Assembly (NCBI RefSeq): GCF_030384885.1 | Contig: NZ_CP128613.1 | DNA: 64,000 bases | Direction: 5' to 3' (one strand) | Source of the DNA: Escherichia coli | GTDB taxonomy: Bacteria; Pseudomonadota; Gammaproteobacteria; Enterobacterales; Enterobacteriaceae | Shown: positions 19,252 to 35,164 of the stretch, one piece after another | Numbering within the stretch: the stretch's first letter is position 1 | Layout: each line of letters begins with the position of its first letter | Made by a program: the position numbers and the translations under genes | The notes under the pieces: model-generated | What the model saw: only the letters and a program-made list of their open reading frames with translations | The model's database searches: none | Told to the model about the DNA's origin: nothing

Positions 19252-20664
19252 TTACTTCCGCAGTTCAGCAGTCCGCTTCTTACCAATAAACAACCAGCCC
19301 AACCCCAGCGCGATAAACCACAGCGGGGTAACCAGCAGCGCCTGGCGAGTGTCATCTTCCAGTGTCAGCAACACGACCACGAACACAAAGAACGCCATAC
19401 ATACCCAGCACATCAGCTTGCCGAGCGGCATCTTGTAGATCGACTTCTCATGCAGATGAGGTCGCTGTTTGCGATACACCAGGTATGAGCAAAGGATAAT
19501 CGTCCAGACGAACATAAACAGAATCGCGGAAACAGTCGTGATCATCGTGAACGCGCCAATTACACTTGGATTCACATACAACATCACCACGCCGCCGAGC
19601 AGACAGATACAAGAGAAGGTCAGCCCTTTCGCGGGCACGGCGCGCTTAGAAAGTTTAGCGAACGCTTTCGGCGCAACACCTTCCTGGGCCAGACCAAACA
19701 GCATACGGCTGGTAGAGAAGACGCCGCTGTTAGCGGAAGACGCCGCAGAGGTCAGCACCACAAAGTTGATTACGCTGGCAGCCGCAGGCAAACCCACCAA
19801 TACAAAAAGTTCAACGAACGGGCTTTTCTCCGGGACTACCGAACTCCACGGCGTCACGGACATAATCACAATCAGCGCGAAGACGTAGAACATAATGATA
19901 CGGATCGGAATGGAGTTAATCGCACGTGGCAGTGATTTCTCCGGATCTTTCGTTTCCGCAGCGGTTGTACCGACCAGCTCAATCCCCACGAAAGCGAAAA
20001 CCGCTATCTGGAATCCGGCAAAGAAGCCACTTAAACCTTTCGGGAACCAGCCGCCGTCATTCCACAAATGCGCAAACGACGCTTCCACACCGGTCGGTGA
20101 CTGGAAGTGCATCGCCACCATGACCAGGCCGACGACAATCAGTGACACGATGGCGACAATTTTGATCATCGCAAACCAGAACTCCATCTCACCGAACATT
20201 TTCACGGTAGCGAGGTTAAGCGTCAGCAGCAGCACTATCACCGCCAGCGAGGCGACCCAGTCGGAGAGATCGGGGAACCAGAACTGAGCATAGGCAGTGA
20301 TGGCCACCACGTCCGCCATACCGGTAACCACCCAGCAGAACCAGTAGGTCCAGCCAGTGAAATATCCCGCCCATGGCCCCAGTAAATCGGAAGCGAAGTC
20401 ACTAAAAGATTTGTATTCCAGATTCGAAAGCAGCAATTCCCCCATTGCCCGCATCACGAAAAAGAGTATAAAACCGATGATCATATAAACGAAGATGATC
20501 GACGGTCCGGCAAGGCTGATTGTTTTACCGGACCCCATAAACAACCCCGTACCAATGGCCCCACCAATGGCAATAAGCTGAATATGTCGGTTTGTGAGAT
20601 TGCGCCGTAGCGACTGTTCAGCCGGAGCCTGATCATCGGCAACGACTTTTACCTGATCTACCAT
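19252..20664 (-). CDS. cycA: D-serine/D-alanine/glycine:H+ symporter CycA (APC family)
   Basis: 470-aa polytopic membrane ORF; matches CycA from memory; synteny. Confidence 0.95.
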   Translation of the reverse strand: MVDQVKVVADDQAPAEQSLRRNLTNRHIQLIAIGGAIGTGLFMGSGKTISLAGPSIIFVYMIIGFILFFVMRAMGELLLSNLEYKSFSDFASDLLGPWAGYFTGWTYWFCWVVTGMADVVAITAYAQFWFPDLSDWVASLAVIVLLLTLNLATVKMFGEMEFWFAMIKIVAIVSLIVVGLVMVAMHFQSPTGVEASFAHLWNDGGWFPKGLSGFFAGFQIAVFAFVGIELVGTTAAETKDPEKSLPRAINSIPIRIIMFYVFALIVIMSVTPWSSVVPEKSPFVELFVLVGLPAAASVINFVVLTSAASSANSGVFSTSRMLFGLAQEGVAPKAFAKLSKRAVPAKGLTFSCICLLGGVVMLYVNPSVIGAFTMITTVSAILFMFVWTIILCSYLVYRKQRPHLHEKSIYKMPLGKLMCWVCMAFFVFVVVLLTLEDDTRQALLVTPLWFIALGLGWLFIGKKRTAELRK

Positions 20665-20972
20665 GTTTTTTTCTTCCTGTACCTGTCTGTGTTGTTCAGG
20701 CTCTGCGGCCTTTAGTCAGTCTATGATACGACGAATCTGTATCGGGACTCATCGATATTAGGTAACAATACGCGGGATGAATACTAAGATTTAGATCTAA
20801 TGTTAATTTTATGTTTAAAGTGAGTGTCATATCACGGTGATAACGCGAAACAGCTCACAAAAATACACGCTTACGTGGTCTTTGCAACACAAAATAGCGC
20901 CATTTGGCAAACTGAAGGGTTTATTGCTGAATGCCTGCTCCCCTCTGGCTCGAGGGGAACAGAATGCGCTGC

Positions 20973-21593
20973 TTAGAGGATTTCCAGCAGTTCGACTTCA
21001 AACACCAGGGTGCTGAACGGAGGGATGGACGCGCCAGCGCCACGCTCGCCATATGCCAGTTCCTGCGGGATAGTCAGTTCCCATTTAGAACCTACCGGCA
21101 TCAGAGTCAGTGCTTCAATCCAGCCAGGGATCACGCCGTTAACCGGGAATTCAGCCGGTTCGCCACGAGCAACGGAGCTGTCAAACACAGTGCCGTCGAT
21201 CAGTTTTCCGGTGTAATGAACACGAACGCGGTCGGTACGTGCCGGAATTGCGCCTTCCCCCTGGTTGATCACGCGGAATTGCAGGCCAGATTCGGTGCTA
21301 TTCACGCCCTCTTTTTTGGCGTTTTCTTCAAGATATTTCACACCTTCGGCAGCCATCGCCTGGAAACGTTGGCGACGTACGGCATCAGCGCGTTCGTGGA
21401 TTTCACGCAGCGCGCGGTGCACCACATCAACCGGAACAGCCGGATGTTTGCCTTCCAGCGCATCGGCAATGCCTGCAACCAGTGCTTCTGGCAGCAGCCC
21501 TTCCAGGCCAGATTCACTCAGTTGTTGCCCTACCTGCAAACCAATGCCGTAGCTTGCTTGCGCTTCGATGGTGTCAAAAGTTGGGGTGGTCAT
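20973..21593 (-). CDS. fklB: FKBP-type peptidyl-prolyl cis-trans isomerase FklB
   Basis: Start set at [12 protein letters not shown], 206 aa; FKBP domain in the C-terminal half. Confidence 0.93.
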
Positions 21594-21810
21594 CGTATTT
21601 CCTTTCTTAGGGTATAAAGTAGCGGGCAGCATATCAGCCACACTTCTTTGGGTAAAACTTTGTCGCGGGAATGATGACAAATCCCGGGGAAAAAGAAACA
21701 ATAGCAATATCCCGTATGAATATAATAAAGGCGGGTTTACCACGGACATCATAGCGTTAGCTTATTCATAGGCTATGATTGAGGAACAAGACGCGGAGCA
21801 GGAGGAAACC

Positions 21811-22449
21811 ATGCCCGGGCGCTTTGAACTAAAACCAACCCTGGAGAAAGTCTGGCACGCGCCGGACAATTTTCGCTTCATGGACCCGCTACCGCCGATG
21901 CATCGTCGGGGGATCATTATTGCCGCTATTGTATTGGTGGTCGGATTTCTACTCCCGTCTGATGATACGCCAAACGCGCCGGTGGTGACGCGTGAAGCAC
22001 AGTTAGATATTCAGTCGCAATCACAACCGCCGACAGAAGAACAGCTGCGGGCGCAATTAGTCACACCACAAAATGATCCTGATCAGGTGGCTCCGGTCGC
22101 TCCAGAACCGATACAGGAAGGCCAACCGGAAGAGCAGCCGCAAACCTCGCAAGTGCAACCTTTCCAGCCAGATAGCGGAATTGACAATCAATGGCGCTCT
22201 TACCGTGTCGAACCCGGTAAAACGATGGCGCAGCTGTTCCGCGACCACGGACTGCCCGCTACCGATGTCTATGCAATGGCGCAGGTAGAAGGCGCGGGTA
22301 AGCCGCTGAGTAATTTGCAAAACGGGCAGATGGTGAAAATCCGCCAGAATGCCAGCGGCGTGGTGACGGGCTTAACCATTGATACGGGGAATAATCAACA
22401 GGTCCTGTTTACCCGCCAGCCGGATGGGAGTTTTATTCGTGCGCGGTAG
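21811..22449 (+). CDS. ytfB: Cell-division protein YtfB (OapA-domain)
   Basis: Start set at [13 protein letters not shown] (212 aa); TM segment then Pro/Gln-rich linker; 3' end overlaps the convergent TetR gene. Confidence 0.88.
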
Positions 22450-23080
22450 ATGAAGGGTCAACCAAAAGCCAGCTAAGGATTGTCTCTTTGATGACCTTAC
22501 GCCTGGCTTCCAGTGCCTGCGGTGAAACCATACTGATGTGATAAACCAGGCCAAGCGTATGCTGGTTGATCAAATAATATCCTCCAAGAGCAGCAATATT
22601 AATATTCACCTGCAACGGGTCGATATCTGGCTTAAAAATATTGCGCCGTTTGCCTTCAGCTAATAATGACTCCATTAACTGTAAGTGTGCGTGGTTAATT
22701 TCTAAAAGGCGCTGTGATTTTGCATAATGCACCCCTTTACTCTGGTTTTCACTATGCACAATTTTTAAAAACCAGGGGTTAGCAATGTAATAATCCCAGG
22801 TGAAATCGATAATTTTCTCAATGGCTTTTTGTGGCGGAAGACCTGAGAAATCAAGGGATTTTTCTTTTTGCCGAATATCATTCCAGGTATATTCCAGCAC
22901 TTCGATAAATAAATTTTCTTTATTACCAAAGTGATGATAAACCGTCTGTTTACTGCACTCCGCGGCCTTGACGATATTATCGACTCTGGCCCCTTCGTAA
23001 CCATATTCGGCAAATTCATTAACCGCACATAACAACAGCTTTTCCTTCAGGCTTTGTACGTTGCTGGTATCAAGATACAT
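22433..23080 (-). CDS. TetR/AcrR-family transcriptional regulator
   Basis: N-terminal HTH ([28 protein letters not shown]) typical of TetR; ATG at 23080 preferred over the GTG at 23140 used by the ORF track; divergent from the downstream operon. Confidence 0.8.
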
Positions 23081-23202
23081 TCCGCTTCCCCACGTCTTCT
23101 TCGTGATGACTATCTTAACCCGATTTGTTAGAAGCTCCACTAAAATGGCTAAAAACTCGCAATTTCATCGGGTTATCAAATGCTCTGTGATCATTATCGC
23201 AT

Positions 23203-23224
23203 ATCAACCAACTAGATGGTTGAT
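23203..23224. promoter_or_regulatory. Candidate TetR operator (inverted repeat) in divergent promoter region
   Basis: atcaacca-actaga-tggttgat, 8-bp perfect arms, between the TetR gene and the SDR gene; inference. Confidence 0.35.
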
Positions 23225-23291
23225 CTTTCTTGCCACACATTGCAAGCTAATCGTCACTTAAGGAAATAATATTCAAAAAGAGGGTTATTGT

Positions 23292-24083
23292 ATGAAGTCA
23301 ACACGTCCTGTTGCTGTCATCACTGGAGCCGCACGTGGTATTGGAAAGGGCTGTGCACTGGAACTTGCGCGTGGCGGATTTAATCTGCTGATTAATGATC
23401 GTCCGGATGCCGACAGCGTAGAAAAATTACATGCCACACAACAAGAATGTCTGGCGGAAGGCGTGGAAGTGATTTGCTTCCCTGCTGATGTTGGCGATCT
23501 CTCCCTTCATGAAGAGATGCTCGACGCGGCGCAAAACCAGTGGGGACGTCTGGACTGTCTACTCAACAACGCAGGCATTTCAGTGAAAAAACGCGGTGAC
23601 CTCCTCGACCTCGAACCAGACAGCTTCGACCAAAACATTGCCATTAACACCCGTGCGCCGTTCTTCCTTGCTCAGGCATTCAGTAAGCGATTACTGGCAC
23701 AGCCGAAACCGGAAGCAGAACTGCCGCACCGCTCGATTATTTTTGTCAGTTCCATAAACGCCATCATGCTGGCGATGAATCGCGGCGAATATACCATTGC
23801 CAAAACTGCCGTCTCCGCCGCAGCTCGTCTGTTTGCCGCTCGCCTTTGCAATGAACAAATTGGCGTTTATGAAGTGCGCCCTGGCCTAATCAAAACCGAT
23901 ATGACCATTCCGGCAACGGCTTATTACGACGAACTGATTGCTAAGGGGTTAGTGCCGTGGGGACGTTGGGGTTATCCGGCTGATATTGCCTCAACGGTCC
24001 GCGCGATGGCGGAAGGCAAACTGATTTACACCTGTGGTCAGGCGGTCGCCATCGACGGCGGCTTAAGTATGCCGCGCTTCTGA
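23292..24083 (+). CDS. Short-chain dehydrogenase/reductase (SDR)
   Basis: TGAARGIG cofactor motif, NNAG, and Ser...Y-x3-K catalytic motif (YTIAK) read directly. Confidence 0.85.
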   Translation: MKSTRPVAVITGAARGIGKGCALELARGGFNLLINDRPDADSVEKLHATQQECLAEGVEVICFPADVGDLSLHEEMLDAAQNQWGRLDCLLNNAGISVKKRGDLLDLEPDSFDQNIAINTRAPFFLAQAFSKRLLAQPKPEAELPHRSIIFVSSINAIMLAMNRGEYTIAKTAVSAAARLFAARLCNEQIGVYEVRPGLIKTDMTIPATAYYDELIAKGLVPWGRWGYPADIASTVRAMAEGKLIYTCGQAVAIDGGLSMPRF

Positions 24084-24092
24084 GGCTGAATC

Positions 24093-24935
24093 ATGAGAGA
24101 TCTGTTACAACGCCCGGATTTATTCAGTATCAATACTGCGACACTGGGCTATAAAACGCCGCTACCTGCCATTATTGATGCCTGCGCCGCACGCGGTATT
24201 GGCGCGATTGCCCCCTGGCGCAGGGAGTTACAGGGTGAAGATCTCCAGCAAATCGCCCGCCAGCTTGCTGCCAGTAACATGAGCGTTTCCGGTTTGTGTC
24301 GTAGCACCTATTACACCGCGCCGACGCTGACGGAACGCAAACTGGCGATTGATGATAACCGCCGGGCGCTGGACGACGCCGCTGTACTGAACGCCGCCTG
24401 TTATATGCAGGTGGTTGGCGGTCTGCCAATGGGAACAAAAGATCTGTACGAAGCGCGGGAACAAGTGAAACAAGGGATTCGCCAGTTGCTGCCACATTCG
24501 AAAGATGTCGGCGTGCCAATTGCGCTGGAGCCGCTGCACCCGATGACAGCTGCCGATCGCTCTTGCCTGTGCACGTTACGTCAGGCGCTGGACTGGTGTG
24601 ATGAACTCGATCCCGATGGGGAGTTTGGCCTCGGCGTGGCGGTGGATGTTTATCACGTCTGGTGGGACCCGGATCTCGCCAGTCAGATCCTGCGTGCCGG
24701 AAAACGCATCCTCGCGTTTCATGTTTCCGACTGGCTGGTGCCAACCACCGATTTAGTCAATGACCGGGGAATGCCGGGAGATGGCGTAATCAATATTCCG
24801 TCTATTCGTCGCCAGGTAGAAAATGCCGGATTTAACGGTGCTGTGGAACTGGAAATTTTCTCACCGTACTGGTGGCAGCAAGATATTAACAGCACGTTGG
24901 ATATTAGCGTCGATCGCATCGCGCATTATTGCTAA
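24093..24935 (+). CDS. Sugar-phosphate isomerase/epimerase-like (xylose-isomerase-type TIM barrel) protein
   Basis: 280-aa ORF; family assignment by overall resemblance only (…AFHVSDW…), no database check. Confidence 0.55.
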   Translation: MRDLLQRPDLFSINTATLGYKTPLPAIIDACAARGIGAIAPWRRELQGEDLQQIARQLAASNMSVSGLCRSTYYTAPTLTERKLAIDDNRRALDDAAVLNAACYMQVVGGLPMGTKDLYEAREQVKQGIRQLLPHSKDVGVPIALEPLHPMTAADRSCLCTLRQALDWCDELDPDGEFGLGVAVDVYHVWWDPDLASQILRAGKRILAFHVSDWLVPTTDLVNDRGMPGDGVINIPSIRRQVENAGFNGAVELEIFSPYWWQQDINSTLDISVDRIAHYC

Positions 24936-24938
24936 GGA

Positions 24939-25721
24939 ATGATCATGAGTGACCAACCCGTTCTGTTCAGCAGAGCGGCGGCTTCCTGCCGCCTGACATT
25001 GAACCGTGAAGATAAATGTCATGCTATTAATGAAGAAATGATCGAATCTCTCGACCATTATTTAAATGAAATTGAAAACGACACCACATTACGATTAGTC
25101 GAATTAACGGCAACCGGCGATAAATTCTTTTGTGCAGGCGGCGATATTAAATCGTGGTCAGCCTATTCGCCATTAGATATGGGCAGAAAATGGATTAAAC
25201 GCGGCAATGACGTTTTTAATCGCCTGCGCAATTTACCTCAATTAACGGTTGCGAATCTCAACGGTCATACCATCGGCGGTGGTATTGAACTTGCCTTGTG
25301 CTGCGATATTCGTATTGCTCGCCCCGGCGCGAAATTCTCTAATCCGGAAGTAATGCTCGGCATGGTGCCTGGCTGGATGGGCATTGAACGCGTGCTTAAT
25401 CAGGTCGGTCCGGTGGTCGGTCGCCAGATGCTGATGCTGGGTAAACGCCTGACGGCGCAGGAAGCTCAGGCAGCGAATTTAATTGATGAAGTGGTAGAAA
25501 AAGAACAGGTGGAAAGCTGGATGGCGAATCAGTTAGCGCAGCTGGAAAAATGCGGTCCGGTGGCGCTCGCACATATCAAGCAACTGATTCTGGCTCTAGA
25601 AAATAAACATGCTGATTACCCGCACCAGTTACTGGCTGGATTAATGTCCGCCACTCAGGATTGCCAGCAGGCGACGCGCGCATTTGCCGAAAAAAGTAGC
25701 GTGAGCTTCCAAAATCAATAA
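24939..25721 (+). CDS. Enoyl-CoA hydratase/isomerase (crotonase family)
   Basis: Crotonase signatures FFCAGGDIKSW and GHTIGGGIELALCCDIRIA. Confidence 0.85.
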   Translation: MIMSDQPVLFSRAAASCRLTLNREDKCHAINEEMIESLDHYLNEIENDTTLRLVELTATGDKFFCAGGDIKSWSAYSPLDMGRKWIKRGNDVFNRLRNLPQLTVANLNGHTIGGGIELALCCDIRIARPGAKFSNPEVMLGMVPGWMGIERVLNQVGPVVGRQMLMLGKRLTAQEAQAANLIDEVVEKEQVESWMANQLAQLEKCGPVALAHIKQLILALENKHADYPHQLLAGLMSATQDCQQATRAFAEKSSVSFQNQ

Positions 25722-25730
25722 GGAAATTGT

Positions 25731-27272
25731 ATGCGTAAGATAACAACCGCCGAGACACTGGCGGCGCAAATTCAGGACGGTGCAACCATTGCCATTAGCG
25801 GTAATGGCGGCGGCATGGTGGAAGCGGACCATATTCTGGCTGCTATTGAAGCGCGTTTCCTGCAAACCGGACACCCGCGCGATCTGACATTAATCCACTC
25901 GCTGGGCATTGGCGATCGCGACTGCAAAGGCACTAACCGCTTCGCTCATGCAGATATGCTCAAACGCATCATTGCCGGACATTTTACCTGGTCGCCCAAG
26001 ATGCAGGATCTGGTGAAAAACAATGCTATTGAAGCCTACTGCTTCCCTGGTGGCGTAATTCAGGCACTGCTGCGGGAGATCGGTGCCGGACGTCCAGGGC
26101 TTTTTACCCACGTTGGACTGGGATCGTTTGTTGATCCGCGCAACGGCGGCGGTAAGTCGAACGCCAGCACCACTGAGGATCTGGTAGAACTGATTGAAAT
26201 CGACGGTGAAACCAAACTTCGTTATCGCCCTTTCAAAGTGGATTACGCGATTTTGCGTGGCACTTATGCCGATCCTCGAGGCAACGTCAGCCTTGAAGAA
26301 GAGGCGATTGATATGGATAGCTATTCCATGGCGCTGGCAGCACACAACAGCGGTGGCAAAGTGTTCGTACAGGTGCGCGATGTGCTGGAAGCTGGTGCCA
26401 TTGAACCACGCCGGGTCAAATTACCGGGCATTCTGGTTGATGGCATCGTTGAACACCGCGAACAACCGCAAACATATCTTGGCGGTTACGACCTGACCAT
26501 CAGCGGTCAGCACCGCCGTTTAAGTTCTAACGACGCTATTGAACTGGTTACTCATCCGGTGCGCCGCCTGATTGCCCGTCGGGCAGCACGCGAACTGGTG
26601 GCTGGCGCTTCAACCAACTTTGGCTTTGGCATTCCCGGCGGCATTCCTGGGGTTGCACTGCGCGAAGGCGTGCCTTATCAAAGTTTATGGCTGAGCGTCG
26701 AGCAAGGCGTGCATAACGGTATGATGCTGGATGATGCTCTGTTCGGCTGCGCCCGTAACGCCGATGCCATTATTCCATCACTCGATCAATTCGAATTCTA
26801 CAGTGGCGGAGGGATCGATATCACCTTCCTCGGCATGGGAGAGATGGATCAGCATGGTAACGTCAACGTCTCCCATCTCAATGGCAATCTCATTGGCCCC
26901 GGCGGATTTCTCGAAATTGCGCAAAACGCCCGTAAAGTGGTGTTCTGTGGCACGTTCGACGCCAAAGGTAGCAAGATTGATGTAACACCAGATGGCTTGC
27001 ATATCGCCCAGTCAGGTCAAATCCCTAAACTGGTTACCCAAGTGGAAAAAATCACTTTTAGCGCCGCCTACGCACAGCAAAGCGGTCAGGAAGTGTTGTA
27101 TATCACTGAACGTGCAGTATTCCAATTAACAGCAGAAGGCGTTGAATTAATTGAAATCGCACCAGGTGTGGAGATTGAGCGCGACATTCTGCCATATATG
27201 GCTTTCCGTCCAATTATCAATCAGCCACGCCTGATGGAAAGTAGCCTGTTTACGCCGATGGAGGATGCATGA
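25731..27272 (+). CDS. Family-I CoA-transferase (YdiF/acetate CoA-transferase-like, fused A/B subunits)
   Basis: 513-aa ORF; long stretches resemble E. coli YdiF as I recall it (…VGLGSFVDPRNGGGK…); 3' end overlaps the next gene (ATGA). Confidence 0.8.
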   Translation: MRKITTAETLAAQIQDGATIAISGNGGGMVEADHILAAIEARFLQTGHPRDLTLIHSLGIGDRDCKGTNRFAHADMLKRIIAGHFTWSPKMQDLVKNNAIEAYCFPGGVIQALLREIGAGRPGLFTHVGLGSFVDPRNGGGKSNASTTEDLVELIEIDGETKLRYRPFKVDYAILRGTYADPRGNVSLEEEAIDMDSYSMALAAHNSGGKVFVQVRDVLEAGAIEPRRVKLPGILVDGIVEHREQPQTYLGGYDLTISGQHRRLSSNDAIELVTHPVRRLIARRAARELVAGASTNFGFGIPGGIPGVALREGVPYQSLWLSVEQGVHNGMMLDDALFGCARNADAIIPSLDQFEFYSGGGIDITFLGMGEMDQHGNVNVSHLNGNLIGPGGFLEIAQNARKVVFCGTFDAKGSKIDVTPDGLHIAQSGQIPKLVTQVEKITFSAAYAQQSGQEVLYITERAVFQLTAEGVELIEIAPGVEIERDILPYMAFRPIINQPRLMESSLFTPMEDA

Positions 27273-29350
27273 GTCAGCTTGATGACACCCTCCTTGATGC
27301 GCTGACGCATGTCACTTTCCCGAAGGGTTTTGCACAGGCAGAACCCGCATGGGTTGTCACGGTAGACGGTGTTGATTACCCACTCTGGCAAACAGATGCC
27401 CTGGTAGTCGGCAGTGGTGCAGCCGGGCTGCGTGCAGCTGTGGAACTTAAACGCCGCCAGCAAAATGTGTTGATCGCCACTGCCGGGTTATATATGGGGA
27501 CGTCGGCATGTTCTGGTTCCGATAAACAGACACTGTTTACCGCCGCTACCGCGGGCAATGGCGACAACTTCACCAAACTGGCAGAGGCACTGGCGAGCGG
27601 TGGAGCGATGGATCACGACACCGCTTATGTCGAAGCGGTAGGTTCTCTGCACACTCTTGGCGGGTTGCAATATCTTGGTCTGGAATTACCGGAAGATCGC
27701 TATGGCGCGATTCTTCGTTATCAAACCGACCATGACGAAGCCGGGCGTGCAACCTCGTGTGGGCCGCGTACCTCAAGGTTAATGGTGAAAGTGCTGTTGG
27801 AAGAAGTGCAGCGCCTCGCCATTCCAGTGTTGACCAGTGCAACAGTGATTAAACTGCTGCATCAGCGTGACGAAAACGGCGAAGACTGCGTGGCGGGGGC
27901 AATCCTCGCGACCGGTCATCGCGCCCATAACCCATGGGGGCTGGCAATTGTGACTGCGCCCAATGTGGTGCTGGCAACAGGAGGGCCTGGCGAGCTTTAT
28001 CGAGACAGTGTGTACCCACATAAATGCTTCGGCTCGCTGGGGCTGGCGCTGGAAGAAGGTCTGACGCTAACCAATCTGACCGAAAGCCAGTTTGGTATTG
28101 GCACGCCACGCAACACCTTTCCGTGGAATTTGTCCGGCACCTATGTACAGGTGATCCCATATATCTATTCCGTAGATGCTGAGGGCAACGAGTATAACTT
28201 CCTCACGGATTACTATCGAACTACCCAGGAACTGGCTTCAAACATCTTCCGTAAAGGCTATCAGTGGCCGTTTCACGCCACACGAGTGATGGATTTTGGC
28301 TCCAGCTTGTTAGATATGGCAGTAGCGCAAGAGCAGCAATCAGGGCGTCAGGTATTTATGGATTTCAATCGCAATCCTGAACCTGTGCCGGGTGACATGC
28401 CGTTCTCATTAGATCGACTGGACGACGACGTTCGCGCGTATCTGGAAAATAACGACGCTCTGGCACCATCGCCCATCGAACGACTGCAACGAATGAATCC
28501 GCTGTCTATCTCGCTGTATAAGATGCACGGTTACGATCTCACCACGCAGCCATTGCAGTTTGCCATGAATAATCAGCATATGAATGGCGGCATTGAAGTG
28601 GATATCTGGGGGCAAACCTCCCTGCCCGGCTGTTTCGCCGTGGGGGAAGTTGCTGGCACACACGGCGTTACCCGACCTGGCGGTGCGGCGCTGAATGCCG
28701 GACAGGTATTTGCCGTGCGACTGGCACGTTTTATTGGTTGCACACAAAAGCGGTCCGTTGAGGATGATATCGCGCAGCTGGTAGCCTCACCTCTGCATAC
28801 AATCAGAGAAGTTATCGCTCAGGCACTGGCAAACGAGAACGGAATGACGCTGGCAACGGTGAAAGAAAAAATCCAGGCGCGAATGTCTGATTACGCGGGA
28901 TTTATTTGCCATGCTGATAAAGTTCGTCACGCCGCCCGTGACGCCATGCTGTTAAATGAATTTGCGCAGCAACATGGTCTAACTATCAACCACGCCGGTG
29001 AAATTGCCGAGCTATTTATGTGGCGGCATATGGCATTAACATCCGCTGCGGTGTTAAGCCAGCTATCACATTATATTGATGCTGGCGGTGGTAGTCGTGG
29101 AGCACGGATGATTATTGATCCACAAGGAGAATATCTTCCACAAACTCGTCGCGGCGCAATCGAAGATTGGCGTTTTCGCTCTGAACAAGCTGAAGATAAA
29201 AATCACAGACTAACTCTCTCCTTTTCACAAGGTTTATTTATTAATGAAATTAAGTTCTTGAGAAACTTACCGCATATTAAAGGTATTTACTTTGAGAAGA
29301 ATTGGCCTGATTTTCTTAACGGAACAATTTATCAGACACGGCATGAATAA
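27269..29350 (+). CDS. FAD-dependent oxidoreductase (fumarate reductase/succinate dehydrogenase/L-aspartate oxidase-like flavoprotein)
   Basis: Dinucleotide-binding motif VVGSGAAGLRAA, HMNGG and GEVAGTHGVTRPGGAALN motifs of the FAD_binding_2 family; 693 aa with an AT-rich C-terminal tail. Confidence 0.75.
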   Translation: MSQLDDTLLDALTHVTFPKGFAQAEPAWVVTVDGVDYPLWQTDALVVGSGAAGLRAAVELKRRQQNVLIATAGLYMGTSACSGSDKQTLFTAATAGNGDNFTKLAEALASGGAMDHDTAYVEAVGSLHTLGGLQYLGLELPEDRYGAILRYQTDHDEAGRATSCGPRTSRLMVKVLLEEVQRLAIPVLTSATVIKLLHQRDENGEDCVAGAILATGHRAHNPWGLAIVTAPNVVLATGGPGELYRDSVYPHKCFGSLGLALEEGLTLTNLTESQFGIGTPRNTFPWNLSGTYVQVIPYIYSVDAEGNEYNFLTDYYRTTQELASNIFRKGYQWPFHATRVMDFGSSLLDMAVAQEQQSGRQVFMDFNRNPEPVPGDMPFSLDRLDDDVRAYLENNDALAPSPIERLQRMNPLSISLYKMHGYDLTTQPLQFAMNNQHMNGGIEVDIWGQTSLPGCFAVGEVAGTHGVTRPGGAALNAGQVFAVRLARFIGCTQKRSVEDDIAQLVASPLHTIREVIAQALANENGMTLATVKEKIQARMSDYAGFICHADKVRHAARDAMLLNEFAQQHGLTINHAGEIAELFMWRHMALTSAAVLSQLSHYIDAGGGSRGARMIIDPQGEYLPQTRRGAIEDWRFRSEQAEDKNHRLTLSFSQGLFINEIKFLRNLPHIKGIYFEKNWPDFLNGTIYQTRHE

Positions 29351-29370
29351 TATTGCAAAGGTTAATCACT

Positions 29371-29847
29371 ATGCGAAATATAATCAGATCTATTAATTCA
29401 TTGCTTTCCACGTTGAACATTACCATTTTGGCAATTATTGTGATGTGCGTTACATGGCAAGTAGTAGCACGATTTATCTTTAAAAGCCCCAGCATTTTTA
29501 CAGATGAACTTAGTCGTTTACTATTTATTTGTCTTGGACTTTTTGGTGGTGCTTATACTGCCGGACAAAACCGACATCTGGCCATTGATCTTCTGCCAAT
29601 GATGCTAAAAGGAAAATCCCGACGTTATTTATTCTTATGTATTCAGGCCATTGTTATTCTTTTTGCCTCTATCATTATGGTTTATGGTGGCGGGTTATTA
29701 ACACTGGACACATTTGATTCAGGGCAAACTTCTCCGGCTTTAGGCTGGCAGATGGGATATATTTACATGAGCATTCCAATAAGTGGCATCCTTATTATTA
29801 TATACACCATAGATACAGTTTTAACCGAACTTAAACAACCACTCTAA
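29371..29847 (+). CDS. TRAP transporter small permease (DctQ-like)
   Basis: About 158 aa with 4 predicted TM helices; ATG at 29371 with upstream aaagg preferred over the TTG at 29353; directly upstream of DctM. Confidence 0.75.
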   Translation: MRNIIRSINSLLSTLNITILAIIVMCVTWQVVARFIFKSPSIFTDELSRLLFICLGLFGGAYTAGQNRHLAIDLLPMMLKGKSRRYLFLCIQAIVILFASIIMVYGGGLLTLDTFDSGQTSPALGWQMGYIYMSIPISGILIIIYTIDTVLTELKQPL

Positions 29848-29869
29848 AATAAGTAGGGATGGAGAAAAC

Positions 29870-31171
29870 ATGGATTACTGGTTACCGATCATTGTGTTAT
29901 TTGGTTCTTTCTTTTTTATGTTGGCATTAGGTGTTCCTATTGTCTATGCTATTGGTTTATCAACACTGGCATCAATTACTACACAACTCGATTTCAACTC
30001 AGCATTGAGTGTGGTTTCACAAAAGTTAGCCTCCGGGTTAGATAGTTTTACGTTGTTGGCAATCCCATTTTTTATCTTGTCTGGCAACATTATGAATCAT
30101 GGAGGAATAGCGCGACGATTAATCAACTTTGCCCGTATTCTCGGCGGTCGTCTGCCAGGCTCACTTGCTCACTGTAATATTCTTGCCAATATGCTGTTCG
30201 GGGCAATTTCTGGTTCAGCTGTTGCTTCGGCGGCTGCGATGGGCGGCGTCATGCATCCACAGCAGGTTAAAGAGGGTTACGACCCGGCATTCAGTACCGC
30301 TGTTAACGTTGCCTCTGCACCGACAGGTTTACTTATTCCACCCAGTAATACGTTAATTGTCTTTTCACTGGTCAGTGGTGGTACTTCTATTGCCGCACTG
30401 TTCCTGGCAGGATATGTCCCGGGAATTTTATTGGGCCTGGCGCTGATGACTGTGGCTGGTATTATCGCGGTACGCCGGGGTTATCCAAAACCAGAACGTC
30501 CGACTTTGCGCCAGGCTGGAGTGGCAATATGGATGGCGATCCCCAGTATTTTCCTGATTGTATTAATTATGGGTGGTGTACTAAGCGGTATTTTTACCCC
30601 GACAGAAGCATCTGCAATTGCGGTAATTTATACCCTTTTCCTTGCACTGGTTCTTTATCGTGAAATATCAGTTAAAGATTTACCTAAGATATTTCTGGAG
30701 TCCGTCATTACCACTGCAATTGTCTTGTTGTTAATTGGTTCTTCAATGGGAATGTCATGGGCAATGTCAAACGCTGACGTTCCCTTCCTGATTCTCGATT
30801 TGCTTAACACTATTTCTGATAATCCAATAATAATCCTGCTTATTATCAATATTATTCTGTTGATTATCGGCACATTTATGGATATGACACCGGCAGTACT
30901 GATTTTTACGCCGATATTTTTACCCGTTGTCACCGAACTGGGCATGGACCCGATTCACTTTGGTATTGTCATGGTACTGAACATGTGTATCGGTATTTGT
31001 ACTCCGCCTGTAGGCAGTGTGTTATTTGTCGGTTGTAGTGTATCTAAATTACCGATTAATAAAATTATCAAACCTATGCTGCCCTTCTATGCCGTGATGG
31101 TATTGGTGCTGGCTATGGTGACCTATATTCCGCAAATCAGTATGGCATTGCCAAGAGCACTGGGCTACTGA
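29870..31171 (+). CDS. TRAP transporter large permease (DctM-like)
   Basis: 433-aa polytopic membrane protein; size and hydrophobicity pattern typical of DctM. Confidence 0.85.
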   Translation: MDYWLPIIVLFGSFFFMLALGVPIVYAIGLSTLASITTQLDFNSALSVVSQKLASGLDSFTLLAIPFFILSGNIMNHGGIARRLINFARILGGRLPGSLAHCNILANMLFGAISGSAVASAAAMGGVMHPQQVKEGYDPAFSTAVNVASAPTGLLIPPSNTLIVFSLVSGGTSIAALFLAGYVPGILLGLALMTVAGIIAVRRGYPKPERPTLRQAGVAIWMAIPSIFLIVLIMGGVLSGIFTPTEASAIAVIYTLFLALVLYREISVKDLPKIFLESVITTAIVLLLIGSSMGMSWAMSNADVPFLILDLLNTISDNPIIILLIINIILLIIGTFMDMTPAVLIFTPIFLPVVTELGMDPIHFGIVMVLNMCIGICTPPVGSVLFVGCSVSKLPINKIIKPMLPFYAVMVLVLAMVTYIPQISMALPRALGY

Positions 31172-31223
31172 TGCGCATTCACTGGCGGCTCCTGCCGCCA
31201 TATTTATTAGAAAAGGAACATCT

Positions 31224-32195
31224 ATGAAAATAAAAGTATCCGCTGGCATTATCGGTGCTGTTCTTATGTTATCTGCAGGCCAGTCCTGGGCAGTAACATT
31301 AAAACTTAGCCATAATCAGGATAAATCTCATCCTGTTCATAAAGCGATGGAGTTCTTTGCGAAAAAGAGCAAAGAGTACTCTAACGGTGATATTACTATT
31401 CGTATTTATCCAAATGGAACATTGGGTACTCAACGAGAAACAATGGAGCTGATTCGTTCTGGTGCTATTCCGCTGGTAAAAACCAATGCGGCGGAGATGG
31501 AAGCCTTCGAGAGTTCGTATAAAATATTTAGCCTGCCTTATTTGTTCCGCGATCGTGATCATTATTATCAGGTCATGCAAGGCGATATCGGAAGGAAAAT
31601 CCTCGACTCAACGAAAAACAAAGGTTATTTCGGTCTGACTTTCTATGATGGAGGCGCCCGCAGCTTCTACGGCAATAAACCGGTGCTGAAACCAGACGAT
31701 CTCAAAGGAATGAAAGTTCGTGTCCAGCCAAGCCCAGGGGCAGTTGAGATGATCAAAGTCATGGGAGGTAACCCAACACCGCTGGATTATGGAGAGTTGT
31801 ACACAGCATTGCAGCAAGGTGTGGTTGATATGGCGGAAAACAGTGTGATGGCGCTGACCACCATGCGCCACGGTGAAGTAGCAAAATCCTTCAGCCTTGA
31901 CGAACACACTATGGTTCCTGATGTGGTTCTAATGAGCAATGCTTCGTTTGATAAGCTTAGCCCGGAAAATCAGGCAGCTATATTAAAAGCAGCTAAAGAA
32001 TCAATGAGCTACATGAAAGACTTGTGGAGCGAGGAAGAGAAAAAAGAATTCGCTAAACTGGATCAAATGGGCGTGAAAGTCTACAAGGTTGATAAAGCAC
32101 CGTTTATCGAGAAAGTGCAGCCGATGTACGCAGCCTTTGCTAAGGAAAACCCTGCTCTCGCCCCAATGCTAACTGATATTCAGGCGACTAAGTAA
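31224..32195 (+). CDS. TRAP transporter substrate-binding protein (DctP-like), periplasmic
   Basis: 323 aa, signal peptide MKIKVSAGIIGAVLMLSAGQSWA; DctP-size soluble protein adjacent to DctQM. Confidence 0.8.
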   Translation: MKIKVSAGIIGAVLMLSAGQSWAVTLKLSHNQDKSHPVHKAMEFFAKKSKEYSNGDITIRIYPNGTLGTQRETMELIRSGAIPLVKTNAAEMEAFESSYKIFSLPYLFRDRDHYYQVMQGDIGRKILDSTKNKGYFGLTFYDGGARSFYGNKPVLKPDDLKGMKVRVQPSPGAVEMIKVMGGNPTPLDYGELYTALQQGVVDMAENSVMALTTMRHGEVAKSFSLDEHTMVPDVVLMSNASFDKLSPENQAAILKAAKESMSYMKDLWSEEEKKEFAKLDQMGVKVYKVDKAPFIEKVQPMYAAFAKENPALAPMLTDIQATK

Positions 32196-32252
32196 TTATC
32201 TTAATAGGGCTGCTTATTGTGGCCCTTAGCAATATCTACAAGCGCTCGCTAT

Positions 32253-32288
32253 AAAAGCAAAACGCCGACCAATGGTCGGCGTTTTTAC
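32253..32288. terminator. Bidirectional intrinsic terminator between TRAP operon and rplI
   Basis: aaaagcaaa-acgccgacc-aatg-gtcggcgt-ttttacg: hairpin flanked by A-run and T-run. Confidence 0.75.
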
Positions 32289-32306: not shown

Positions 32307-32768
<462 letters not shown>

Positions 32769-34073: not shown

Positions 34074-34349
34074 ATGTTCAGCCGTGTTTTAGCCCTTCTG
34101 GCTGTGCTTTTGCTAAGTGCAAATACATGGGCAGCCATTGAAATTAATAACCACCAGGCCAGAAATATGGACGATGTGCAAAGCTTAGGCGTGATTTATA
34201 TCAATCATAATTTCGCCACTGAAAGTGAAGCACGTCAGGCATTAAATGAAGAGACAGATGCGCAGGGCGCAACGTACTACCATGTGATTCTGATGCGGGA
34301 ACCGGGGAGTAACGGCAATATGCACGCCAGCGCGGATATTTATCGCTAG
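34074..34349 (+). CDS. yjfY: DUF1471 (YhcN/BhsA family) periplasmic protein YjfY
   Basis: 91 aa, signal peptide, C-terminal ...ADIYR motif shared with bsmA and yjfN. Confidence 0.88.
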   Translation: MFSRVLALLAVLLLSANTWAAIEINNHQARNMDDVQSLGVIYINHNFATESEARQALNEETDAQGATYYHVILMREPGSNGNMHASADIYR

Positions 34350-34388
34350 CACCAGGTATAACCAACGAAACATTGCCATAGTTTGCTT

Positions 34389-34415
34389 TGCCCCCTTTTC
34401 AGGGGGCTTTTTTTG
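34389..34415 (+). terminator. Intrinsic terminator after yjfY
   Basis: gcccccttttcagggggc hairpin followed by ttttttt. Confidence 0.85.
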
Positions 34416-34477
34416 AAAAACGGCTGCGGACTTAGACCAGTTATCTCCCGAAGAAGGAAATCTCCGCAGCGCGTGTT

Positions 34478-35164
34478 TTACTTCTGCCCGTAATAGGCGT
34501 TGGGACCGTGCTTACGCATGAAGTGTTTATTCATGAGATAGCTGTCGATGTGATTCAGTTGCGGGTTAATGCCGCGGGCAATCCACGCCATTTTCGCCAC
34601 TTCTTCCATCACCACCGCGTTATGCACCGCATCGTGAGCATCTTTCCCCCAGGCGAATGGCCCGTGCTGATACACCACAATTCCCGGCGTATGCAGCGGC
34701 TCGGCGTCACCCAGCGTTTCGATAATCACTTTGCCAGTGTTTAGCTCGTATTCCCCCTGCACTTCTTCTTCGCTTAACCCGCGCGTACACGGGATATCGC
34801 CAAAGAAGTAGTCAGCGTGCGTGGTGCCTAATGCCGGGATCGCCAGCCCCGCCTGCGCCCATGCGGTGGCATGCGTGGAATGGGTATGGACAATGCCGCC
34901 AAGCGACGGATAACGACGGTAGAGTTCAAGATGCGTCGCAGTGTCGGAAGACGGACGATACTCCCCTTCCACCACCTTGCCACTCATATCAACCACCACC
35001 ATATCGTTCGCTTTCATGCTTTCGTAGGCAATGCCGCTGGGCTTGATCACCACCAGCCCGCGTTCGCGGTCAATGGCGCTGACGTTACCCCAGGTAAAGG
35101 TCACCAGCCCGTAGCGCGGCAGATCCATATTGGCTTCAAATACCTGCTGTTTTAGCTTTTGCAT
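34478..35164 (-). CDS. ulaF: L-ribulose-5-phosphate 4-epimerase UlaF
   Basis: 228-aa class II aldolase/epimerase fold; last gene of ulaABCDEF. Confidence 0.95.

Follow-up and report, generated by a model that had tools for sequence, protein, structure and literature searches.

A nine-gene catabolic locus between ytfB and rplI of Escherichia coli that possibly serves the coenzyme A-linked use of a hexuronate-like acid

The window analysed here is a stretch of 64,000 nucleotides of Escherichia coli DNA (NCBI RefSeq assembly GCF_030384885.1, contig NZ_CP128613.1) in which nine intact open reading frames lie between ytfB and rplI, namely one gene for a TetR-family regulator and, divergent from it, eight genes that share a strand. 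Together they form a real, intact, repressor-controlled catabolic locus that is of an ordinary kind and has uncharacterised content. We give an about even chance to the possibility that this operon serves the uptake and coenzyme A (CoA)-linked catabolism of a hexuronate-like acid; the order of the reactions is proposed below with less confidence than the substrate class. Such a substrate is suggested because three independent lines of evidence converge on it: the binding site of DctP, the solute-binding protein of the encoded tripartite ATP-independent periplasmic (TRAP) transporter; an ExuT-like transporter of the major facilitator superfamily (MFS) that occupies the same place in other strains; and the sugar-acid genes that adjoin homologues of the encoded flavoprotein. 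A previous sequence-only reading had left the substrate unnamed. No functional assignment, and no well-characterised operon with an assigned substrate, was found in a literature search (most subscription journals being outside its scope), in NCBIfam or in the source names, and the class can be narrowed as stated. The genes of the locus are as follows (aa, amino acids; scores in bits are given with the curated cut-off of the model):

22433-23080, minus strand: TetR/AcrR-family regulator, 215 aa (NCBIfam matches, in agreement with RefSeq)
23292-24083, plus strand: classical short-chain dehydrogenase/reductase (SDR) oxidoreductase, 263 aa (NF009386, 420 bits versus 250)
24093-24935, plus strand: xylose-isomerase-like TIM-barrel protein, 280 aa (PDB 3qc0/3ju2, E=9e-86)
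24939-25721, plus strand: crotonase-fold enoyl-CoA hydratase, 260 aa (many enoyl-CoA hydratase models, E=1e-44)
25731-27272, plus strand: fused family-I CoA-transferase, YdiF-like, 513 aa (YdiF, PDB 2ahu, E=6e-116)
27269-29350, plus strand: FrdA/SdhA/NadB-like orphan flavoprotein, 693 aa (Pfam FAD_binding_2, E=2e-25, residues 43-475)
29371-29847, plus strand: TRAP small permease DctQ, 158 aa (RefSeq start; weak YiaM match; alternative TTG start at 29353)
29870-31171, plus strand: TRAP large permease DctM, 433 aa (TIGR00786, 460 bits versus 268)
31224-32195, plus strand: TRAP solute-binding protein DctP, 323 aa (NF037995, 252 bits versus 50; TIGR00787, 246 versus 175)

The best PDB matches of DctP, the signal peptide of which ends in SWA, form one group that includes 4n91 (Apre_1383) and 4n15 (Bamb_6123), with 4mhf (Bpro_3107) scoring lower. 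Apre_1383 binds D-glucuronate and Bpro_3107 binds both uronates, and Bamb_6123 is the template for the glucuronate-binding protein STM3169, from which the residue roles used here are taken (PMC7660916). Residues R146, R166 and N206 of DctP are conserved in the printed alignments and correspond to the Arg150/Arg170/Asn210 triad of STM3169; in particular, R166 aligns with a conserved arginine in 4ovr, 4x8r, 4n15 and 4n8y, the carboxylate-holding residue that is R170 in STM3169. By a constant numbering offset of -4, for which there is no printed alignment, N31, Q32 and D233 match N35, Q36 and D237 of STM3169. Other uronate binders vary at the positions of Asn35, Gln36, Glu74 and Asp237. On this comparison, the site of DctP is putatively of the hexuronate type.

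The second line of evidence is the MFS protein that is encoded by other strains in place of the TRAP genes. It is 47% identical to K-12 ExuT over the full length (424 bits) but only 24-28% identical to DgoT, LgoT, GudP and YfaV.

The third comes from the neighbourhoods of flavoprotein homologues. In Alphaproteobacteria, these adjoin genes for a KdgK-like kinase, LacI, sugar ATP-binding cassette transport, GMC oxidoreductases and a levoglucosan-dehydrogenase-like enzyme of the Gfo/Idh/MocA type; in Planctomycetes and their relatives, an SDR gene and a gene resembling 2-keto-3-deoxy-6-phosphogluconate aldolase; in a metagenome-assembled genome (MAG) of gut Clostridia, a UxuB-like (fructuronate-reductase-like) reductase gene; and in a Desulfobacterales MAG, IlvD/Edd- and DapA-family genes. 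Larger parts of the enzyme module recur as well. The trio of SDR, TIM barrel and flavoprotein is found without CoA genes in Brenneria, Escherichia sp. ESNIH1, Mangrovibacter, Phytobacter and Pseudescherichia, and is combined with the CoA-transferase and the enoyl-CoA hydratase in a Rhodocyclaceae MAG (L091), where the order is the same and TRAP genes are also present, and in another betaproteobacterium (L015). A Desulfobacterales MAG (L072) and a Clostridia MAG (L081) encode SDR, flavoprotein, CoA-transferase and enoyl-CoA hydratase, and no TIM-barrel gene was detected in these two clusters. Finally, close homologues of the TIM-barrel protein (55-56% identical) occur with a CoA-transferase, an acyl-CoA dehydrogenase, an SDR, a DUF993 protein and an enoyl-CoA hydratase, without the flavoprotein. 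In two such loci of other Proteobacteria (L090 and L092), the order is TetR, CoA-transferase, acyl-CoA dehydrogenase, SDR, DUF993 and TIM barrel, with an enoyl-CoA hydratase gene nearby in L090; the literature search found no paper on DUF993.

Several observations weigh against a hexuronate-like substrate and have to be set beside these lines. Within DctP, Q70 replaces E74 of STM3169, so that one of the seven glucuronate contacts differs, and the correspondence of N31, Q32 and D233 is one of numbering, not of a printed alignment. Glucuronate and galacturonate are already served in E. coli by ExuT and the UxaC pathway, and the true ligand may therefore be another uronate or a look-alike. The 2019 review on how microbes catabolise hexuronates offers no precedent for a CoA-dependent route: it covers isomerase, oxidative and fungal reductive routes along with DEHU routes, and the term 'CoA' never occurs in it; nor did the literature search retrieve any experiment on these genes. 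Several strains carry pseudogenes of the operon produced by frameshifts, stops or insertion sequence (IS) elements. The acyl-CoA dehydrogenase that stands in the place of the flavoprotein in L090 and L092 suits plain beta-oxidation equally. Lastly, the clusters of Brenneria and Escherichia sp. ESNIH1 use a non-ExuT MFS protein of the aromatic-acid type and are devoid of CoA genes, so the SDR/TIM-barrel/flavoprotein core may differ in substrate between lineages.

The Brenneria cluster also bears on an alternative that we regard as unlikely, namely that the operon degrades or reduces a hydroaromatic (alicyclic) acid with a shape close to that of a pyranuronate; candidates would be quinate, shikimate and related polyol carboxylates of cyclohexane or cyclohexene. 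In such a pathway, the flavoprotein would reduce or desaturate a ring bond beside the carboxyl group, the TIM-barrel protein would dehydrate, and the CoA-transferase, the crotonase and the SDR would carry out Bad-like ring chemistry. Indeed, in Brenneria the genes for TetR, SDR, TIM barrel and flavoprotein are followed by one for a PcaK-like aromatic-acid:H+ symporter (369 bits), and the acyl-CoA dehydrogenase that accompanies these genes in L015 most resembles acryloyl-CoA reductase, with cyclohexane-1-carbonyl-CoA dehydrogenase second in similarity. Both 3-dehydroshikimate dehydratase and inosose dehydratase belong to the TIM-barrel superfamily, and a CoA-transferase, a dehydrogenase, an enoyl-CoA hydratase and an SDR make up the set for cyclohexanecarboxyl-CoA degradation, both of which would suit a hydroaromatic substrate. 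Against it, the MFS protein of E. coli and Klebsiella is specifically ExuT-like, DctP retains glucuronate contacts, and the neighbours of the flavoprotein homologues are sugar-acid genes rather than aromatic-ring genes. Furthermore, at E<0.01 the structure of dehydroshikimate dehydratase was not among the significant matches of the TIM-barrel protein, and no support for a hydroaromatic substrate was found in the literature searched.

The enzymes are assignable to families with different degrees of precision. The SDR contains the motifs TGAARGIG at position 11, NNAG at 92 and YTIAK at 167; its nearest PDB entries, 4da9 and 4one, are both uncharacterised, and '3-ketoacyl-ACP reductase' is a name assigned by automatic annotation. 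The TIM-barrel protein matches 3qc0/3ju2 (SMc04130) with 291 bits and 7vpf with 208 bits but IolI with only 29 bits; PF01261 is present in its homologues, and every NCBIfam match is far under the cut-off. By these matches, the protein is placed in the uncharacterised SMc04130-type subfamily and is only remotely related to IolI. The crotonase has both catalytic-type glutamates in the expected motifs (GGGIE117 and PE137) and reaches no NCBIfam equivalog cut-off, the best score being 152 bits versus 394. Residues 6-508 of the CoA-transferase align to 2ahu, with E324 falling on the catalytic E333 of YdiF. Like YdiF, which is encoded in the E. coli cluster ydiF-ydiO-ydiQRST, it is a fused family-I enzyme that has kept the catalytic glutamate; unlike YdiF, of which it is a paralogue, it belongs to a different operon with other partners. 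We know of no settled physiological substrate of YdiF itself.

A shortened paralogue of the TIM-barrel protein (207 aa; P0310-P0320), ~70% identical over 64% of the length, is also encoded by E. coli and Shigella. One match (H28, 86.6% identity), confined to the part comprising the SDR and TIM-barrel genes, may relate to this paralogue.

This enzyme set might also be read as a variant of beta-oxidation of short- or medium-chain hydroxy- or keto-acids, along the lines of the scheme of the sequence-only reading, in which a FadX/YdiF-type transferase would activate the acid, the flavoprotein would replace acyl-CoA dehydrogenase, the crotonase would hydrate, the SDR would oxidise the 3-hydroxyacyl-CoA and housekeeping thiolases would finish the cycle. 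The CoA-transferase does match the Staphylococcus FadX model with 384 bits (under the cut-off of 750), the SDR has been named automatically as a 3-ketoacyl reductase, the crotonase has both glutamates, and an acyl-CoA dehydrogenase takes the place of the flavoprotein in L090 and L092. Yet this alternative, which we consider rather improbable, leaves unexplained the conserved TIM-barrel gene, the hexuronate-type transporters and the sugar-kinase and aldolase neighbours, and the flavoprotein does not have the acyl-CoA dehydrogenase fold and retains residues that bind a free carboxylate. The nine genes do not by themselves encode a complete beta-oxidation cycle, as there is no thiolase among them.

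The flavoprotein is the most distinctive component of the locus. Its AlphaFold2 model (pLDDT 91.5) has as best Foldseek matches FrdA and SdhA, with predicted structural similarity corresponding to TM scores of 0.65 (query-normalised) and 0.73-0.78 (target-normalised) at 15-19% sequence identity. Similarly to members of the FrdA/SdhA/NadB superfamily, it possesses the four-domain fold with FAD_binding_2 and the active-site histidine and arginine: H437 and R469 align with H351 and R386 of NadB and are invariant in an alignment of 34 family sequences. Unlike these proteins, it has no histidine for covalent attachment of flavin adenine dinucleotide (FAD), the respective position not being His in the family consensus; no frdB- or sdhB-like iron-sulfur partner gene was found in or beside the operon; and the cap domain is unalignable by profile. 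No signal peptide was predicted for the flavoprotein. Its scores stay under every curated cut-off (TfrA, 130 bits versus 718; NadB, 108 versus 639; SdhA/FrdA, 87 versus 567). The family comprises at least 417 sequence clusters at E<=1e-30, with no characterised member found among them. By these comparisons, the protein is classified as a member of the superfamily that lies outside all known NadB, FrdA, SdhA and TfrA families. A reaction could not be assigned from fold or sequence, given that the cap domain does not align to that of FrdA or NadB.

The fold and the conserved histidine and arginine, which are common to fumarate reductases, together with the non-covalent FAD expected as in soluble reductases, could be taken to indicate that the flavoprotein is an electron sink, that is, a cytoplasmic fumarate-reductase-like enzyme that anaerobically reduces an unsaturated acid (for instance a 4,5-unsaturated uronate or an enoyl-CoA from the crotonase), the operon then serving redox balance and not carbon supply. 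NadB can use fumarate as electron acceptor, and the planctomycete homologues of the flavoprotein lie beside OYE/GltD-type ene-reductases. However, the operon encodes neither a domain nor a partner for electron input; the layout with a CRP-like site, a TetR regulator and a transporter is typical of carbon-source operons; and the kinase and aldolase genes beside homologues elsewhere imply that carbon passes into central metabolism. An electron sink is accordingly a reading to which we assign a low probability.

For a hexuronate-like acid, the following sequence of events can be envisaged. The TetR protein would repress the operon through a palindrome at 23203-23224 until the substrate or an intermediate binds to it. 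DctP would capture the acid in the periplasm through Arg166, Arg146, Asn206 and neighbouring residues for import by DctQM, a task that would fall to the ExuT paralogue in other strains. The SDR would oxidise (or reduce) a hydroxyl or carbonyl group, and the metal-dependent TIM-barrel protein would isomerise, epimerise or dehydrate beside the carbonyl, like its relatives IolE, IolI and YcjR. The YdiF-like transferase, using E324, would form the CoA thioester, and the crotonase (E117/E137) would add or remove water at the alpha,beta bond; the flavoprotein would perform redox chemistry at the carbons beside the carboxyl group or thioester, using the retained carboxylate-binding His437 and Arg469. 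Cleavage of the carbon-carbon bond would be left to enzymes encoded elsewhere. A combination of sugar-type carbonyl chemistry with thioester chemistry would seem the most economical reading of the gene content. The earlier scheme of CoA activation, hydration and oxidation is retained here as to the CoA steps but is incomplete, with the sugar-type chemistry of the SDR and the TIM-barrel protein probably to be added.

More specifically, and tentatively, the locus may encode an undescribed CoA-thioester-dependent route for a hexuronate or an analogue, for example L-iduronate, mannuronate, guluronate or a glycan- or diet-derived uronate outside the reach of UxaC, with the orphan flavoprotein as the key redox enzyme and founding member of its family; we consider this version less probable than the substrate class itself. 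Known hexuronate pathways, that is, the isomerase (UxaC-UxuB/UxaB-UxuA/UxaA-KdgK-Eda) and oxidative (Udh-Gci-KdgD) routes and DEHU reduction, would share the probable substrate class with the operon, but none of their enzymes is encoded in it, and only distant relatives of the flavoprotein adjoin KdgK-, Eda- and UxuB-like genes. Likewise, ExuT and the glucuronate-binding TRAP proteins STM3169, Apre_1383, Bpro_3107 and Bamb_6123 are the nearest known counterparts of the transporters, the MFS protein through its identity to ExuT and DctP through the kept Arg/Arg/Asn triad; the known systems either occur by themselves or belong with the UxaC/UxuAB isomerase pathway, whereas here the transporter shares an operon with CoA-dependent enzymes and an orphan flavoprotein. 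The closest parallel for CoA-thioester breakdown of a sugar acid in an enterobacterium is the deoxyribonate cluster of Klebsiella michiganensis, which also includes MFS transporters and a CoA-transferase (Price et al. 2019, PMC6365646). The two are not identical: that cluster is a different locus and encodes a CoA synthetase, a 3-hydroxyacyl-CoA dehydrogenase, a thiolase, a glycerate kinase and a lactonase, and no TIM-barrel protein, crotonase or FrdA-like flavoprotein.

Comparison of the TRAP and MFS forms of the locus shows that homology ends ~20 bp before the stop codon of the flavoprotein gene and restarts at the rplI terminator. The TRAP proteins of the window (29353-32195) are highly similar to those of the Rhodocyclaceae MAG (L091 14545-17637; DctM 86%, DctP 76% and DctQ 70% identical, the DctQ homologue of the MAG carrying PF04290), whereas the enzymes are only 40-62% identical; in the MAG, the TRAP genes come after the homologous enzyme genes, in the same gene order as in the window. 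The TRAP segment has a G+C content of 0.38-0.45 as against 0.51-0.56. Given the high identity to the Rhodocyclaceae proteins and the lower G+C content, the TRAP genes seem to have been acquired later, from a related operon. The conclusion that the transporter is interchangeable behind a fixed enzyme module is well supported, and the two-transporter polymorphism represents a clean natural example of such an exchange.

The flavoprotein gene itself is mosaic at one end:

28718-29350, plus strand: hyper-divergent 3' end of the flavoprotein gene, residues ~485-693, last ~630 bp

Over this segment, E. coli alleles are 63-76% identical in nucleotide sequence versus >90% upstream, and the C-terminal ~210 residues of the proteins are 66-78% identical versus 97-98% elsewhere, forming deep allelic classes. 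The number of synonymous substitutions per site (dS) is 1.1-1.3 compared with 0.2-0.4 upstream, and the ratio of nonsynonymous to synonymous rates (dN/dS) is 0.13-0.26 compared with 0.04 for residues 1-484, which are thus under strong purifying selection. These values indicate allelic segments that are old or were imported and that purifying selection still maintains, as opposed to decay; recombination from other species and an interaction surface are both possibilities for the origin of the divergence. Positive selection on the 3' domain found no support in view of the same dN/dS values combined with very high dS. Co-import of the 3' end with the TRAP genes was likewise unsupported, given that TRAP-type alleles are no nearer than MFS-type alleles to the Rhodocyclaceae protein (32-33%).

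In a set of 5,426 complete E. coli genomes, the enzyme module, counted where at least 80% of the five-enzyme segment was present, is found in 3,114 (~57%) and is absent from about 42%, K-12 among them; the TRAP genes are present in 1,445 genomes and the ExuT-like MFS gene at the same place in 1,686. The operon thus occurs in more than half of the complete E. coli genomes and, in addition, in strains of the K. oxytoca group and some Salmonella. In Klebsiella oxytoca and Salmonella enterica, the TetR gene, the five enzyme genes and the MFS gene lie between ytfB and rplI, with the proteins 77-94% identical to their counterparts. Because the same genes occupy the same position in these bacteria, the locus predates the split of the genera, and its old age at the ytfB-rplI position in Enterobacteriaceae can be regarded as well supported by such synteny. 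Within the E. coli collection, a small number of matches to the locus (one to three places) fall on plasmids and not on chromosomes.

The sequence-only reading placed yjfZ and ytfA at this position of K-12 and suggested an ancestral or variable segment that K-12 has lost, and comparison with the K-12 locus bears out both points. Of the TetR gene, K-12 retains only 403 bp at the 3' end (window 22433-22835), annotated as a truncated TetR gene, so that ytfA, which had been proposed for inspection as a possible remnant, is the 3' part of this very gene. A second, unannotated scar is a 102-bp relic of the SDR gene (~80% identity; L002 3408-3509, corresponding to window 23381-23482) between ytfA and yjfZ, after which the K-12 sequence runs into yjfZ exactly as in the form of the locus with MFS and yjfZ. 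The truncated TetR gene, the SDR relic and this continuation mark K-12 as a deletion derivative, which, together with the synteny in Klebsiella and Salmonella, agrees with ancestral presence. It is because K-12 has lost the operon that it has gone unstudied.

The module missing in K-12 and many other genomes, and the frameshifts, stops and IS insertions in some, might suggest a decaying cryptic remnant that is functionless in most strains, but this is highly improbable in view of the nine intact genes in the window, the dN/dS of 0.04 over most of the flavoprotein gene and the conservation of operator and gene order across three genera. The inactivated alleles are the following:

L093 3661-4502: TIM-barrel gene with a frameshift, strain IHE3034
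L004 7838-9910: flavoprotein gene with an internal stop, strain ZYS9073
dctM of G3/10: IS1 insertion
a further form: truncated by IS1

If the substrate is indeed a uronate-type acid derived from mucus, glucuronides, glycosaminoglycans or dietary fibre, the operon would be a strain-variable determinant of a nutrient niche in the gut. It would also provide the first function for the flavoprotein family and for the TIM-barrel subfamily of the SMc04130 type, whose crystal structures have been solved but for which no function is known.

Two other origins of the locus were considered and rejected. It is not a mobile island: no integrase, transposase, IS, tRNA or flanking direct repeats were found within the window, in line with the sequence-only reading, and Klebsiella and Salmonella have the locus in a syntenic position. 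Special import of divergent DNA into this strain was rejected on the grounds that divergence from K-12 is about the same for core genes flanking the locus (cycA 94.9% and ulaF 94.3% identical) as for the retained part of the TetR gene (92.8%); only the ribosomal protein genes are ~99.7% identical. The operon genes are 93-96% identical to those of other E. coli. The window sequence is 100% identical to that of E. coli 2013C-4282, and the RefSeq annotation gives an identical gene list. The flanking core genes at 19252-22449 and 34074-35164 are 94-97% identical to K-12, the lineage of the window differing from K-12 by about 5% in such genes. The source strain seems to be a member of a divergent Escherichia lineage.

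Regulation of the operon can be addressed through the TetR protein and the divergent intergenic region. Many NCBIfam TetR models match residues 7-79, that is, the N-terminal helix-turn-helix (HTH) domain, and the orthologues from Klebsiella and Salmonella are 87-90% identical and carry PF00440 and PF17938. The start codon is most likely the ATG at 23080, as in RefSeq, rather than the GTG at 23140. The intergenic region is 211 bp long, with a mean identity of 79% across Escherichia, Klebsiella and Salmonella, and contains two features of interest:

23187-23201, no strand assigned: CRP-like site GTGA-N6-TCRCA, directly upstream of the candidate operator
23203-23224, no strand assigned: palindrome ATCAACCAACT/AGATGGTTGAT with 11-nt arms, candidate TetR operator

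The palindrome occurs once in the whole window, is covered by ~22 columns that are invariant across the three genera and has the shape expected of a TetR operator, for which it is a good candidate. The CRP-like motif is likewise retained in the intergenic regions of all three genera and hints, tentatively, at catabolite control; the assignment is tentative because about one match per window is expected by chance (one found versus 1.2 expected) and the support consists of position and conservation. A scan for consensus sigma-70 promoters in the intergenic region gave none at the threshold used, and no Rfam RNA or riboswitch was found in the intergenic leader or elsewhere in the locus.

The ORF coordinates and RefSeq concur with the tightly packed, same-strand arrangement divergent from the TetR gene that had been described from sequence, as well as with its single 4-bp overlap, which is between the CoA-transferase and flavoprotein reading frames. 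The intergenic gaps inside the operon are 2-52 bp: 9 bp between the SDR and TIM-barrel genes, 3 bp between the latter and the enoyl-CoA hydratase gene (9 bp with the RefSeq start at 24945), 9 bp between the enoyl-CoA hydratase and CoA-transferase genes, 2 bp between the flavoprotein gene and dctQ (20 bp with the RefSeq start at 29371), 22 bp between dctQ and dctM, and 52 bp between dctM and dctP. The families originally named for all proteins have likewise held up, as profile, PDB and motif evidence places each accordingly, and, as had been pointed out, no thiolase or other lyase for carbon-carbon bond cleavage is encoded among the nine genes. The remaining features of the locus are these:

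21811-22449, plus strand: ytfB, left flanking gene
31183-31200, plus strand: GC-rich terminator-like hairpin followed by a T-rich tail in the dctM-dctP gap (sequence scan)
32259-32285, no strand assigned: two-way intrinsic terminator of dctP and rplI, 12-bp stem with 7 GC pairs, flanked by an A-run and a T-run
32307-32756, minus strand: rplI, right flanking gene

The strong bidirectional terminator that had been noted as closing the array is the hairpin at 32259-32285, which is common to rplI; from 32254 on, the segment is kept in every variant of the locus, including that of K-12. The hairpin at 31183-31200, which lies inside the operon, might determine how much binding protein is made relative to the membrane subunits.

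At the other end, the TetR gene and ytfB, which lie on opposite strands, have 17 bp in common at their 3' ends (22433-22449), and the overlap persists in K-12 with the truncated TetR gene. The cargo at the rplI-side junction varies by strain and comprises yjfZ, a HipA-type toxin pair, an EamA gene, IS609 or IS1, as at the following places:

L093 10421-12183: HipA-type toxin with an HTH partner, in IHE3034
L003 13550-14344 and L088 13468-14394: other cargo at this junction, where the EamA gene is that of Klebsiella and Salmonella

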